A stretch of DNA of 21,887 bases from a virus (taxonomy: Duplodnaviria > Heunggongvirae > Uroviricota > Caudoviricetes), in IMG/VR virus record IMGVR_UViG_2534681878_000037; one strand, given 5' to 3'. A program made the position numbers. Shown here piece by piece: positions 15,001 to 21,000 of the stretch (positions are counted from its first letter, which is position 1; every line of letters begins with the position of its first letter).

Positions 15001-18000
15001 CCGGGGCGGTTCACTACTTTCGAGAGAGTTCAAAATGTCAAAGATGGTAATACTCTTGCAGCAATAATAAACCATGAGGGATGCCCTTTAAGTAGGCTGC
15101 AGCATAAGAGTTACACTATCTATGGTATGGCGACCCAAGCTAATAGAGCACAAATTGAAGCACTAGAATCTGATGTTTCAACAGTAGTCAAGTGTCTGTA
15201 ATACAATAACCATGATTTAGAACGAACATAATTCTCGCCCGACCAACCGGTCGGGTTTTATACTCGTAGCCTGCTTAATAACACTGTTCCTGACCCGTTG
15301 TATCCATAGTTCCCACTATTTTCCCCCAAATTATTACTATCTAATTAACCTAATAATTAAACCAAAACAAAAGACACTCGATATTTTCTATACGTAACTA
15401 CGCCACATCACCCCATCTGTGAAAAACCTTTTAATTCATAACGTTATATAGAAAACTAAAAATTAAATACACACTTCTACTTTTTGTTGTTGATTTTTGC
15501 TACTTTTAGTAGCATCATTATCTGAACAAACAACAGACTGTTGTTAACGAAAGGTTGGTTGTAACACGGCGTATGGCACATGCGTCGTTAGCGGTCTGGG
15601 GACGTTAAAGGGGACAATCCACTCCTTGCTCGGGCAAACAAACCAGGTAGCCGGAATGTGCAAGTCAATGAGGATGCTGATAAGACGCCTAACCAGCGTG
15701 GCGATTCGGTTTGACGCCTGGGAAGAGACCAGGACGCAACGATGAGAGCATTGACGAGCAAGGCATAAGTGCTGGTTCAATTCCAGACAGTCCCATTCAG
15801 ATGGGAGGGTTGGGCAGGGAAAAGGTCCGTTCGATTCGGACACCGGCAATGCTATCAGCGTTGTGGTGAATGCGCAGGCTGATGCGCGAAAGACATTGCA
15901 GCTATTGCGGAAAAGAGCTGTTCGGCGGGGCAATCAAACGCCCGTGAGAGTCTGAAATAACCGCAAGCCGGAGATCAGCACCGGTCACCACAACAGCCAC
16001 TGCTTTGGCAGTACCAGTTTGTACACTTGCTTCCGGCTGGTACCGCTCTTTTTACAAAACAGAGAAGAGCATCACCGGACGACGGGCTCATAACCCAATC
16101 CATCCGGGCGGCTGCCACCGCAGGTGTTCTTCTCTGTTTTGTGGAGAAACCAACCGACCTTGCAGGGTCGATATGATGAGGAGCAACAAAATGGCTAGCG
16201 AACGCAGTACTGATGTGCAGGCATTTATCGGGGAGCTGGACGGCGGCGTATTTGAAACAAAAATCGGCGCAGTTCTCAGTGAAGTCGCTTCCGGTGTGAT
16301 GAACACGAAAACCAAAGGTAAGGTCTCGCTCAACCTGGAAATCGAACCGTTTGATGAGAACCGTGTGAAAATCAAACACAAACTCTCATATGTTCGCCCG
16401 ACTAACCGCGGGAAAATTTCCGAAGAAGACACCACCGAAACACCGATGTATGTCAATCGCGGTGGTCGCCTGACTATTCTGCAGGAAGACCAGGGACAAT
16501 TACTGACTCTTGCCGGTGAACCTGACGGAAAACTACGCGCAGCAGGTCATTAATATCGTTCTTAATTAACTGATTATTTATCTCATCACTGAATATCTTT
16601 ATATAGTGAGGACTTATTATGTCTCAGAACTTAGACGCAACCGCAATTAATCAAATCCATGCCCTTATTTCTGCTCAGGGTGTTAATGAAATTATCAGTA
16701 AGATTGGTGCCGATGCTGTGGCATTGCCTGAGAATTTCCGCATTCATGATCTGGAAAAATTTAATTTAAATCGCTTCCGTTTCCGTGGTGCGCTTTCCAC
16801 TGCCAGCATCGATGACTTTACCCGTTATTCTAAAGATCTTGCAGATGAAGGCACCCGCTGCTTTATCGATGCCGATAATATGCGTGCCGTCAGTGTGCTT
16901 AACCTGGGTACTATTGATGAACCAGGTCACGCAGATAACACCGCCACTCTCAAACTAAAAAAGACAGCACCGTTTTCTGCTCTGTTGTCTGTTAATGGCG
17001 AGCGTAACTCCCAGAAGTCACTGGCAGAATGGATTGAAGACTGGGCCGACTACCTTGTGGGCTTTGATGCTAATGGTGACGCCATTCAGGCAACAAAAGC
17101 GGCTGCGGCTGTCCGTAAAATCACGATTGAAGCAAACCAGACCGCTGATTTTGAAGATAATGACTTCAGCGGCAAACGCTCCCTGATGGAGTCTGTCGAA
17201 GCGAAGACCAAAGACATTATGCCTGTGGCATTTGAATTTAAATGCGTTCCGTTTGAAGGTCTGAAAGAACGTCCGTTTAAATTACGCCTCAGCATTATCA
17301 CTGGCGATCGTCCTGTACTGGTTCTGCGCATTATTCAGCTGGAAGCGGTGCAGGAAGATATGGCTAACGAATTTCGTGATCTGCTTGTTGAGAAATTCAA
17401 AGACAGCAAAGTAGAAACCTTTATTGGTACTTTCACCGCCTGATTTCATTACTGCAAATGCCCCTGCGGGGGCATTTATGGAAACGTAATTAACTCAATA
17501 ATCACCGGATGGTGATGGCTTCCTTTTACCCAAACTCAGCGCGGTGCAGCGCATATGCGTGGAGAACAAAATGTCATTTATTAAAACTTTTTCCGGGAAG
17601 CATTTTTATTATGACAAGATAAATAAAGACGACATCGTGATTAACGATATCGCGGTTTCCCTTTCAAATATCTGCCGCTTTGCCGGTCATCTTTCTCACT
17701 TCTACAGTGTCGCCCAACATGCGGTGCTTTGCAGCCAGCTGGTGCCGCAGGAATTTGCTTTTGAAGCGTTAATGCATGATGCAACAGAAGCGTATTGCCA
17801 GGATATTCCCGCTCCACTGAAACGCCTTCTTCCTGACTATAAACGGATGGAAGAAAAAATAGACGCCGTAATCCGTGAGAAATACGGGTTACCCCCGGTT
17901 ATGAGCACGCCTGTGAAATATGCCGATCTCATCATGCTGGCAACCGAACGCCGCGATCTCGGGCTTGATGATGGCTCTTTCTGGCCAGTACTGGAAGGTA

Positions 18001-21000
18001 TCCCGGCAACAGAAATGTTCAAAGTTATTCCACTGGCTCCGAGCCATGCCTACGGGATGTTTATGGAGCGCTTTAACGAGTTATCGGAGTTACGCACATG
18101 CGCATGAATGTTTTCGAAATGGAAGGGTTTCTTCGCGGGAAATGTGTACCACGAGATCTGAAAGTGAATGAAACAAATGCTGAATATCTGGTGCGTAAAT
18201 TTGCTGAAGCGGAGGCCAAGATTTTGGCTCTGTCCGAAGACCAACAGAAAGCGATTGAGTCAATTAAGCAGGCTGATGCAGCTGTTAAGTTGGCACACGA
18301 GAAGTTTTCGGCGCTGGCGGCGGAGAATGCGGGGCTGAAACACGCAATGGCCGTAACTCTTGAGCATGTGTCGGTCACGGATGCAGGGCAGGCTGGTGTT
18401 GCTGCAATGATTATCAACGATGCCCTACACCACAGCGAAACTCCAGCCACCGATGCTTTCCTGGCTGAAATTCGTGCGGAAGCACGCAACGAGGGGATTA
18501 ACTATACCGCAAGCCGTCTTGCTGCTGCTTTCAATCACGGATTTATCAATAAGTCTTTACGTGAAGTTTTCGACGTTACACGCATGATTCTGTCAGCGAA
18601 AGAAGAGTTGGCTAATGAACCACACCCGATTGATGGCCTGTCCGGTGAATATGCGGAGAAATCCCTAGAAGAATGGGCGGAACAGATTCGCAAAGGAGGC
18701 AACCAGTGAGCGGAAAAAGAATGACTAACAGAGAGCTTGTTGATGCCGCGATTAAGCTTGCTGGTGATTTTTATTCAATGATGGGGTACGCGCATCGCCC
18801 TGGATTCAAATATTGGGAATCACCGCATCCGCAAGAGCAACTGGTATTTCAAATGGCCTGCCGTGCTTTTGAGGTTATTCGCGGTTCTGATGTGATGGAC
18901 GCCGTTGCCGACTTGGAGGATGAAGAGTGACCCAAATTAACTATCAGGCACTGCGTGAAAAGGCAGAGAAAGCAACTAAAGGAAGCTACATCGTAGGGCA
19001 TACATCTGTTAACCAGCACGGCAATTTAACAGGAGTTTTTGTTTGCCAAAAATGGAAAGGAGAACCCGGTGGCGTGATTGCGGAATGTCATGTTAACTGC
19101 CTGATTGAATCAGATGCTCAGGCTTATGCAAACGCTGAATTCATAGCAGAGGCTAACCCGGCTACCGTGCTGGAACTGCTGGATGAACGGGAAAGAAACC
19201 AGCAATACATCAAACGCCGCGACCAGGAGAACGAGGGGATTGCGCTTACGGTTGGGAAGCTGCGTGTTGAGCTTGAAGCAGCAAAATCAAAACTCAACGA
19301 GCAGCGTGAATATTACGAGGGAGTAATCGCGGATGGAAGTAAGCGCATAGCAGAACTGGAAAAACAATGCGCCGAATGGGAGCGAAAAGCATTAAGCAAC
19401 TTTGAAGAGTGTGCTGCGATGGCTGAACGTATCGAAGAGATGCAGACAAAATCTGCACCAGATTCGTTTGGCATCATCGGTGAAAATATTCGAACACAGG
19501 ACAATCGAATAACGTCAGATCCCATGTTTTGTGTGTATCAAAAGCGCGAAATCGCTGTTGATGCTGATTATGACCATGACCGGATTGTCTGGGTTGACGA
19601 AGATGGCAATGAAGCCAATAAACGCCATAGTCGTCGTCTCGAGCTACTTCATGAAAACTTTCGAGAGCCACCAGAAAAATGGCGGCGCGTTGCTGTGAAA
19701 GATATTGATGAATTCGTTACCTGCTGTTTCACCGAACAGGGTTGTAAAGACTACCTGGCAGTCAATGGTCACAATCTTCGCTTGCCATTTATATATGTAA
19801 AAAGCGGTTTCAGGAACGCTGAATATATCGGCATAAGAAACTGGCTTGCTGGCATTCGCATCAAAGGAGAGTGATATGGCGTTAACACACCGCGAACTCT
19901 GTCAGATTGCGTACAAGTTCCTTAAGCGCAACGGTTTCAAGGTTTGTTTTCATGACCGCTTTATAGCTGTAACCAGTACCGGAGAACAGCCAGATGCTAT
20001 GGGATTCAGAAATTCAGCATCATGCCTGATAGAGGCGAAATGTTCTCGTGCTGACTTGTTGGCAGATAGAAAAAAGCGTTTTCGTAAAAATCCGTCTCTT
20101 GGAATGGGCGACTGGCGATTCTTTATTAGTGAGCCGGGAATTATTTCAATTGAGGATTTACCACCTGGCTGGGGATTACTTCACGTTGTTAACGGAAGAG
20201 TACGGAAAGTACATGGGTGGCCCAAGGGTAATTGCTGTTGGGGTAATCCTGACGATAAGCCATTTACTGGAAATAAGTGAATGCGATTACATGTTGTCTG
20301 CATTAAGGCGCATGGAGTTGAGAGGGCACCTTAATGAAATATATGACGGTGTAATTGTTAATAAGAAAGAAGGAAACGCGGCATGACCACTATTACCGAC
20401 AAAGAACTGATTAAAGAAATCAAAGAGCGCATAGGCAGCTTGGACGTTCGAGACAATATTGAGCGCCGTGCTTATGAAATTGCACTGGCATCGCTGGAAG
20501 CAGAACCGATAGCGTGAGAATGCGGTGAAAACATAATCCTGTTTAACCCTGACACAGTTGAAGCATACGCAAAACGTGCGGAAATATCACCTAAACCACT
20601 ATTCTCCGCGCCGCCAGCGCTGGTAGTGCCTGATAAGTTGCCGCGTGAATACAGAAACGGTTGGCCTCTTGCGTATAGTGATTATGCTGAAGGCTGGAAC
20701 GACTGCCGCGAAGCCATGCTTCAGGGAGATAAATCATGATTAATCGTATCAAGCTGGAGCACATCCTCGAATATGCCAGGCAGCAGAGGCATATTGGTCA
20801 GCATTGTAAAATTCCACCAGGAGATATGGTTGAAATCATGGAGATTGCCATGCGCAAGGCTGGCAACTCTCCGGTAACTCCGGATGGTTGGATAAGCTGT
20901 AGTGAGCGAATGCCGGAGAAATACGATTTCGATATCTGGGTATTCTCTCCATCCAGAGGTGTTCTTGACGGGCTACAGTGGGATGGCTCGATGTTTACTG

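Follow-up and report, generated by a model that had tools for sequence, protein, structure and literature searches.

A yfdP-yfdQ-yfdR cassette of the CPS-53 type at the predicted head of the early-left operon of a Shiga toxin 1a prophage, with a structured leader RNA

What do yfdP, yfdQ and yfdR do for a phage that carries them as the first genes behind its left promoter? These genes have been studied only as cryptic remnants in Escherichia coli K-12. An inducible, intact carrier is offered by the prophage that contributes a virus record of 21,887 nucleotides (nt) to IMG/VR (IMGVR_UViG_2534681878_000037; this whole stretch is called the window below); the window is part of a Shiga-toxin-1a (Stx1a) lambdoid prophage. 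Judged from its sequence, the region at 16191-18107 is an intact phage-borne version of the yfdP-yfdQ-yfdR cassette of CPS-53, and stands at the head of the early-left (pL) operon. The cassette, its early-left position and its HD-domain annotation are already known from the literature and from RefSeq, and as such they alter little. Two observations beside the known cassette are newer: yfdP and yfdQ form an obligate pair, and a conserved structured leader RNA precedes them.

The yfdPQR cassette and its place in the early-left operon

All three genes are on the plus strand: yfdP (16191-16553; 120 amino acids), yfdQ (16619-17443; 274 amino acids) and yfdR (17571-18107; 178 amino acids from an ATG). 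Compared with the proteins of CPS-53 in K-12 MG1655, YfdP is identical at 119/120 positions (99.2%), YfdQ at 273/274 (99.6%) and YfdR at 174/178 (97.8%), and the four differences in YfdR (K151N, S158G, E170D and T176K) all fall within the C-terminal 30 residues. YfdP belongs to PHROG 204 (E 1.2e-49), and all YfdP homologues carry a precomputed match to the newer Pfam family PF27127. YfdQ is a full-length member of Pfam DUF2303 (PF10065; E 1.4e-92, 310 bits where the cut-off is 26.6, residues 7-272 of 274), and YfdR, an HD-domain phosphohydrolase, matches PHROG 318, 'deoxyribonucleoside 5' monophosphate phosphatase' (E 5e-111). In a 100% identical O157 locus, RefSeq gives the same boundaries and names the genes yfdP, yfdQ and yfdR, the last as '5'-deoxynucleotidase'. 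An in-frame GTG at 17544 would extend YfdR to 187 amino acids; the RefSeq and K-12 start is the ATG at 17571. A first-pass annotation of the window had recognised a yfdP-yfdQ-yfdR trio here, which the K-12 identities and the RefSeq names confirm, and the limits it gave, 16191-18107, equal the yfdP start and the yfdR stop.

DNA homology to K-12 is confined to 16172-18201, that is, from 19 nt 5' of yfdP to approximately 100 nt inside the gene after yfdR. Given these limits, yfdPQR and the first ~35 yfdS codons form one mosaic unit. An identical yfdPQR segment (100%) is found in an O157 Stx1a prophage integrated beside mlrA, and 3142 of 5426 complete E. coli genomes contain yfdPQR DNA. Within the unit, gene order, spacing and the yfdR/yfdS overlap are those of CPS-53 (KpLE1): the yfdP-yfdQ gap is 65 nt, and the yfdQ-yfdR spacer of 127 nt (17444-17570) is similar to the K-12 gap. 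A weak hairpin (17501-17516) lies inside this spacer. The gene downstream of yfdR (18098-18709, plus strand) is a YfdS-like open reading frame (ORF) of 203 amino acids with full-length matches to PHROGs 14548 and 614; K-12 YfdS has the same first ~35 residues, and the remainder is unrelated. A 10-nt overlap of the ORF start with the yfdR stop suggests translational coupling of the two genes. At the equivalent place in a 99.7%-identical O157 locus, RefSeq has only a 45-codon partial pseudogene. The resemblance to CPS-53 extends beyond the unit, as the O-like, PerC/YfdN and Dam genes of the window correspond to yfdO, yfdN and yfdM; by this correspondence the three K-12 genes are remnants of such a module. 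By contrast, K-12 has no immunity region, no pL and no structured leader, and yfdO abuts yfdP there, whereas the window belongs to a full Stx1a phage in which the gene after yfdR keeps the YfdS N-terminus only and no yfdT is present downstream.

The placement of the cassette in the operon relies on a second set of operator-like sites. Between cro and cI, such sites (CTACTTAAAATAG) lie at 11789 and 11812, with a perfect palindrome (CTACCTATGGTAG) at 11857. Putative oL operators on the plus strand comprise CTACTTTTTGTTG (15477) and CTACTTTTAGTAG (15500), the latter a perfect palindrome; their 23-bp spacing is the spacing of the 11789/11812 sites, and each operator region contains one perfect CTAC-N5-GTAG palindrome (11857 and 15500). 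A scan with the pattern CTACTNNNAGTAG, allowing up to two mismatches, returned 11 matches where 4.6 were expected, and these clustered at oR (11789, 11812 and 11857) and at 15477/15500. oL/pL is thus placed at ~15480-15520, downstream of the ParA-like gene and of the terminator at 15237-15256 that closes the cI-ParA unit. The putative pL, whose promoter activity is predicted, falls at ~15490-15520, within the operator-promoter block 15477-15522 on the plus strand, with a possible -35 (TTGTTG) and -10 (TAGCAT) read by eye. As in a lambda-type pL operon, operators related to oR stand directly upstream of the genes and in the same orientation. No ATG-initiated ORF was found between pL and yfdP; yfdPQR are therefore positionally the first early-left genes, and in the window the genes of this operon extend to an excisionase at its end. 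The same order recurred in a neighborhood survey of 80 loci (76 species-level genome loci and three phage records): 66 have a cI-type repressor gene upstream on the same strand, YfdP occupies -1, and YfdR occupies +1 or +2 in 52, with integrases and excisionases downstream, which gives a conserved arrangement cI ... yfdP-yfdQ-(yfdR) ... xis-int.

The first-pass annotation had thus placed the trio correctly by position. It had also described the genes as expressed at induction, and here the early-left position agrees, but the description is too simple for a phage without N and with a leader of ~660 nt that includes a terminator-like hairpin. Neither an N gene nor a nutL site was found as the first element after pL, and the leader contains no boxA/boxB. 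In view of the terminator-like leader, expression at induction probably involves regulated passage through the terminator-like structure.

The position of the cassette in lambdoid early-left operons has been published (Genome Res 2025, PMC12315714). LLS, ST64B, phiNP, SfV and ArgO145 have the same three gene types in the same operon position (PMC12315714), and the window YfdQ is 52-59% identical to those of ST64B, phiNP and ArgO145 and 99% identical to that of SfV. That study lists YfdQ and YfdP as without known function, and argues that a hidden-recombinase role is unlikely because ArgO145 has YfdQ/YfdP plus a complete Rec module (PMC12315714). LLS, a phage of the same cluster, has no N homologue; it encodes an O protein only, with no helicase or loader, and the replication of such phages is 'not yet understood' (PMC12315714). 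The window phage resembles LLS in lacking an N homologue and in its O-only replication module. It differs from the phages of that study in that it carries stx1 and has its ParA-like gene interrupted by an IS3-family element, and the study describes neither the obligate yfdP-yfdQ pairing outside enterics nor the leader RNA.

An obligate YfdP-YfdQ pair and a possible role in the control of host replication

We examined how strictly the genes of the cassette keep together in 84 loci, comprising 80 GTDB species genomes and the phages VvAW1, pAN, Vibrio 34E29.1 and Xanthomonas CP2. yfdP is immediately upstream of yfdQ in 83 of them, the sole exception being cut by a contig end, and in the four distant phages the upstream proteins are 33-47% identical to YfdP. 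All 23 dereplicated distant loci kept the pair intact as well; their YfdQ is ~50% identical or less to the window protein, and the loci come from IMG/VR, GTDB genomes and phage records and share some members with the 84-locus set. A YfdR-like HD protein was encoded within 0.6-2 kb in six of the 23. yfdP and yfdQ are an obligate pair and yfdR is facultative, an observation new to this work. A YfdQ profile searched against 1.84 billion representative proteins found 1765 clusters at E <= 0.001; the best 150 of these are nearly all stand-alone proteins of 265-285 amino acids, with a few truncated and no domain fusions among them.

The structures of the two proteins could not be assigned to a recognisable fold. 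AlphaFold2 models were of moderate confidence (pLDDT 76.6 for YfdQ and 67.8 for YfdP), fold-library searches found no fold relatives of either protein, and YfdP gave only chance matches to PDB sequences. One PDB entry, 9o7m ('YfdQ Protein'), contains 36 identical chains of 274 residues that are ~45% identical to the window YfdQ, and its sequence is nearly identical to ORF37 of Xanthomonas phage CP2. This entry indicates a very large YfdQ assembly; it is not among the structures in the fold libraries searched, and a paper describing it was not found in the literature.

For the cassette as a whole, a role has been proposed from work on K-12. The genes yfdQ-yfdR-yfdS-yfdT were isolated as a multicopy suppressor of replication overinitiation (Noguchi & Katayama 2016, PMC4776307). 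Overexpression of yfdQ and yfdR together with yfdS or yfdT blocked initiation at oriC; purified YfdR bound domain I of DnaA, for which DnaA Phe46 was needed; YfdR reduced the binding of DiaA and of DnaB to DnaA; and extracts inhibited oriC replication in vitro (PMC4776307). The authors proposed an ancestral phage role, similar to the inhibition of host initiation by lambda P (PMC4776307). Because the window proteins are so nearly identical to those of K-12, these functional experiments transfer to them, and the window YfdR is an ortholog of the protein tested. The statement in the first-pass annotation that none of the genes has an established phage function is narrowly true, yet it omits this published DnaA/oriC work on near-identical proteins, and the functional suggestions made there (nucleotide-pool manipulation or counter-defence) are weaker than the published replication one.

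Compared with other DnaA-targeting inhibitors, YfdR falls in a class with lambda P, SirA, Dps and DiaA competition, as it cuts both DnaB and DiaA binding (PMC4776307), and its site on DnaA (Phe46) is equivalent to that of SirA in Bacillus subtilis (Phe49; PMC4776307). These inhibitors are unrelated to YfdR in sequence. YfdR has an HD enzyme fold, and in vivo it requires YfdQ and YfdS/T. Lambda P targets DnaA domain III and is itself a helicase loader, whereas the window phage has no loader.

We judge the chances to be about even that the cassette serves host replication control via DnaA/oriC, with YfdP-YfdQ in the same DNA-metabolism context. Loss of the cI-type repressor would allow pL transcripts to cross the structured leader, and the cassette would be expressed. 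YfdR, an HD-fold phosphohydrolase with an intact metal site, would then dock on DnaA domain I at Phe46, the surface used by DiaA and DnaB. Together with YfdQ and the YfdS-like product, it would lower DnaA-dependent helicase loading at oriC, a take-over of host replication that may free DnaB-DnaC for a phage encoding neither helicase nor loader. YfdP-YfdQ would act in this context as an obligately linked unit, probably an oligomeric DNA-associated complex, to which YfdR would be a frequent yet dispensable addition. Action during induction, helicase diversion, the P-Q complex and its association with DNA are each steps that we infer. The cassette also keeps company with a particular replication gene: the O-like protein of the window was found in 57 of the 80 yfdQ loci, and yfdR was present in 42 of these 57 as against 10 of the 23 others, at most a possible association between yfdR and the O-like gene.

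Several points weigh against a role in host replication control. The functional data all come from multicopy overexpression, and a yfdQRST deletion had no replication phenotype; the authors themselves allow for a possible artefact (PMC4776307). yfdP was not needed in the oriC assay, though it is the gene most tightly linked to yfdQ, and neither YfdR nor DnaA nor oriC was bound strongly by YfdQ, YfdS or YfdT (PMC4776307). Of the partners needed in the K-12 assay, yfdQ is present in the window, but the downstream partner is YfdS-like in its ~35 N-terminal residues only, and YfdT is missing. yfdR itself is missing from ~30% of the enterobacterial loci and from most distant loci; the core function of YfdP-YfdQ must therefore not need YfdR or E. 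coli DnaA, and the core indeed occurs in phages of hosts with different DnaA proteins. Upstream of the cassette stands a terminator-like hairpin, and expression of the cassette in this prophage is itself a prediction. Lastly, the HD catalytic residues are strictly conserved, a sign of an enzymatic role for which DnaA binding gives no explanation.

That enzymatic role leads to an alternative, in which YfdR is a nucleotidase that would reshape the nucleotide pool ((d)NMP/dNTP, deoxynucleoside mono- and triphosphates included) or remove a modified or signalling nucleotide early after induction, with YfdP and YfdQ as unrelated passengers. The HD-domain call of the first-pass annotation is upheld: YfdR has the metal-ligand motif of the HD phosphohydrolase superfamily (H50, H69-D70 and D119), and these residues, together with R36, E73 and D78, are invariant across 51 homologues (at least 40% identity, drawn from 80 species-level genomes). 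The PHROG 318 and RefSeq names are those of a 5'-deoxynucleotidase, and weak dNMP and cytidine monophosphate (CMP) phosphatase activity of K-12 YfdR is cited in passages of PMC4776307 and PMC10870394. The '5'-deoxynucleotidase' name rests on this weak activity; the relevant passage of PMC4776307 gives affinities far below YfbR's and calls the function 'elusive'. A YfdR-like HD protein also accompanies yfdPQ in Pseudomonas-type phages, where in pAN it is beside a DNA cytosine methyltransferase. YfbR, the E. coli HD 5'-deoxynucleotidase, shares with YfdR the H...HD...D motif, equivalents of the catalytic Glu and Asp and, in the passages just mentioned, a reported dNMP phosphatase activity. YfdR nevertheless scored under the cut-off of the Pfam YfbR-like family (PF12917; 24.2 vs 25.9 bits) and far under that of the NCBIfam YfbR equivalog (NF003009; 19.8 vs 122 bits), which rules it out as a YfbR equivalog. 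The YfdR profile did not retrieve YfbR structures at E <= 0.01; its closest solved structure is instead 2gz4, that of Atu1052, an HD protein itself uncharacterised (E 6e-14 from the single sequence, 3e-25 from the profile), and YfdR differs from YfbR further in binding DnaA. Deletion of yfdR left CMP accumulation unchanged in an engineered strain, with no rise in CMP yield (PMC10870394); the window has no other nucleotide-metabolism gene beside yfdR; and many loci keep yfdPQ without yfdR. The nucleotide-pool role suggested earlier thus finds support in the invariant catalytic residues and the weak reported activity and none beyond these, and we consider it unlikely as the main function of the cassette.

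It is similarly doubtful that YfdP-YfdQ is an accessory recombination, repair or end-handling complex, for example a DNA-coating or end-protecting oligomer, the effect on initiation being a side effect of its DNA binding. The neighbors of the pair, which also speak for the DNA-metabolism context of the replication-control reading, bring this to mind: distant loci encode a YqaJ-type exonuclease (six loci), RecT (five), SSB (four) and a PrtN-like protein (eight), a DEDD exonuclease is also among the neighbors in distant phages, and an Rv2179c-like 3'-5' exonuclease is a neighbor in 23 of the 80 enterobacterial loci. RecT, YqaJ and SSB are separate neighboring genes in the distant phages, and yfdPQ therefore stand beside canonical recombination genes and do not replace them, in agreement with the argument of PMC12315714. 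Searches of Pfam, PHROG and fold libraries gave no homology of YfdP, YfdQ or YfdR to RecT/Redbeta, Erf, Rad52/Sak, Sak4, Exo/YqaJ, SSB, Gam or Abc2, and what fold matches there were are short and weak. In addition, the cassette co-exists with complete four-function Rec modules (PMC12315714), and YfdQRST showed no tight binding to oriC DNA in vitro (PMC4776307). Both this explanation and the nucleotidase one overlap with host replication control rather than exclude it. A counter-defence module (anti-restriction or anti-abortive-infection), as the first-pass annotation had also suggested, appears very improbable, although such modules are common among the genes that phages express first. Its position among the first genes of an early operon, the sharp borders of the mosaic unit against K-12 (16172-18201) and its spread through E. 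coli would suit such a module. However, no family match to defence or anti-defence proteins was obtained (PADLOC-DB gave 0 families for YfdP, YfdQ, YfdR and the YfdS-like protein, although it is not an anti-defence library), the pair is conserved in sequence and length over the 1765 clusters, unlike fast-evolving anti-defence genes, and its association with one replication module is stable.

The leader RNA and its early-right copy

The leader between pL and yfdP (15523-16190, plus strand) is ORF-less and a mosaic that is conserved in pieces; no Rfam family matched it at gathering or E-value thresholds. We compared the architecture of its last 185 nt in ~47 distinct enterobacterial prophage loci. 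In the window this part begins with a GC-rich hairpin, T1 (16008-16053; stem 16011-16019/16035-16043), that ends in UUUUU (16049-16053) and looks like an intrinsic terminator. Its folding is weak in the window (-16.1 kcal/mol, z -1.15); by eye, a hairpin of this type with a T-run and other stem sequences (GGCGGTACC..., GGCGGCGTC..., GGCGGCCAC...) is seen in most related enterobacterial leaders. T1 is followed by a long hairpin, H2 (16051-16145), whose outer stem of ~23-25 bp runs from the U-run to GUGGAGA and encloses a three-way junction. H2 folds at -49.3 kcal/mol (z -6.9), as well as which 0 of 200 shuffles folded, and a 25-nt inverted repeat was found in it. RNAalifold on 18 sequences predicted 41 pairs, 11 of them with compensatory changes, and independent minimum-free-energy folds gave, for 45 of 47 loci, an outer stem 15-32 bp long (median 24) and built from 38 different 5' arms. 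A small hairpin, P4 (16155-16170), has GACC/GGTC here and GGCGG/CCGCC in relatives, and is followed by a Shine-Dalgarno sequence read from the sequence (AGGAG, 16179-16183) and the yfdP ATG; all of these elements are on the plus strand. The tail of this left (L) element is GUGGAGAAAC. Two candidate motifs were rejected: 'GGCGGTGGCAGCC' as an RfaH ops element, as it is simply a covarying small hairpin, and 'CGCTCTTTTTACAA' as boxA, as relatives have CCGCCCTTTTT at that place.

A related right (R) copy lies on the minus strand in the early-right operon (10886-10976). It shares the exact 12-mer TTGTGGAGAAAC at 10890-10901, where the 12-mer forms the last codons of the cII-like/YmfL gene and the ribosome-binding site of the next ORF. 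Upstream of it are a hairpin (GACGCCCG...CGGGCGTC) that covaries between loci and a U-run; taken alone, the R copy folds no better than shuffled sequences (z -0.4 to -1.6). The L and R tails change together, with GGAGAACTAAC, GGAGATAC, GTATGGAG, GAAGAG and GGAGTAAT each found in both copies. Mismatches between L and R tails averaged 1.87 within a locus and 3.97 across loci, and none of 20000 permutations was as low, with some of the loci being closely related.

This arrangement is reminiscent of HK022 put and lambda nut sites, in that pL is followed by a structured element and pR by a related one, here in an N-less phage, and in that a motif common to the L and R copies varies jointly from phage to phage. 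A put-like mechanism has been predicted for this N-less phage type (PMC12315714). Consistent with these likenesses, the leader element could be an early antitermination or RNase III-type processing element of N-less phages. There are also differences. The L element is a long hairpin with a three-way junction, whereas HK022 put has two ~35-nt stem-loops, and the leader has none of the boxA/boxB of nut. The L element is ~520-620 nt from pL and follows the terminator-like hairpin instead of preceding it, and the R copy takes in the 3' end of a coding gene as well as the next ribosome-binding site. A blastn search (word size 7) against the HK022 nun-cI-cro region found no similarity to putL beyond chance.

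The 5' part of the leader has a different affinity. The segment 15555-15890 is 78-88% identical to DNA just after trnI of phage P1 (71012-71194) and to DNA that directly precedes tRNA-Arg in SPN1S/SPC32N, which are Salmonella phages. Two hairpins in the segment are T-arm-like (CTGG-TTCAATT-CCAG and GTCCG-TTCGATT-CGGAC), and in two Phytobacter loci (L109 and L110) a real tRNA occupies the equivalent place; ARAGORN found no tRNA in the leader. The segment may be a decayed tRNA or a tRNA-like RNA. As a tRNA array it is weakly supported, by the T-arm-like hairpins, the similarity to tRNA-flanking DNA and the two Phytobacter loci.

Taken together, these observations allow a joint proposal that we put forward tentatively. 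YfdP-YfdQ would be an obligate two-protein machine of unclassified fold, with a very large YfdQ assembly, that acts on DNA at the start of lytic growth in a broad group of phages, and that maybe enables a DnaA/DnaB-dependent helicase take-over in N-less, O-only lambdoid phages. In the yfdP-leader hairpins and their co-varying R partner, this phage class would have its missing early RNA for antitermination or processing, and with it a novel type of L/R cis-acting element without sequence relation to put and nut. The strict yfdP-yfdQ pairing, which spans phages of Enterobacterales, Vibrio, Pseudomonas and Xanthomonas, offers a handle on early gene function, and the covarying leader RNA with its early-right partner offers one on early transcription without N; both are relevant to when Shiga-toxin phages are induced. 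The Stx1a prophage is, in addition, a natural system for oriC shut-down by YfdR/YfdQ and for helicase recruitment by an O-only lambdoid phage.

The surrounding prophage

Most of the remaining genes of the window are on the minus strand. They include stxA1 (4021-4977), Q (5475-5924), genes for DUF968/HNH, KilA-N, RusA, a LexA-like protein and Dam, the cII-like/YmfL gene (10880-11464) and cro. The replication module (9103-10535, minus strand) consists of a PerC/YfdN protein and just one O-like replication protein, of the HTH_36 type (9594-10535); helicase and loader are absent. On the plus strand, the cI-type S24 repressor gene (11863-12567) is followed in the 'rex position' between cI and pL by a ParA-like gene (12802-13704 and 15014-~15200), and a gene for a DUF551 protein (20736-21086) lies farther downstream of yfdR.

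The two parts of the ParA-like gene flank a 1.3-kb element of the IS3 family (13705-15013), whose orfA/orfB frameshift site matches the Rfam ALIL pseudoknot (14039-14155); an insertion at exactly the 13705 site was found in none of the complete E. coli genomes of the collection. The product of the ParA-like gene is a ParA/AAA_31 ATPase with 0 PADLOC matches. Because the gene is sited directly after cI and ahead of the strong terminator at 15237-15256, it is probably a lysogen-expressed moron.

Two small RNAs were matched by Rfam near the toxin genes: STnc100 (3450-3663, minus strand; 190 bits) and AgvB (3389-3448, plus strand; just at the gathering score). Both follow the stx1 operon and lie between it and the DUF6645 gene.

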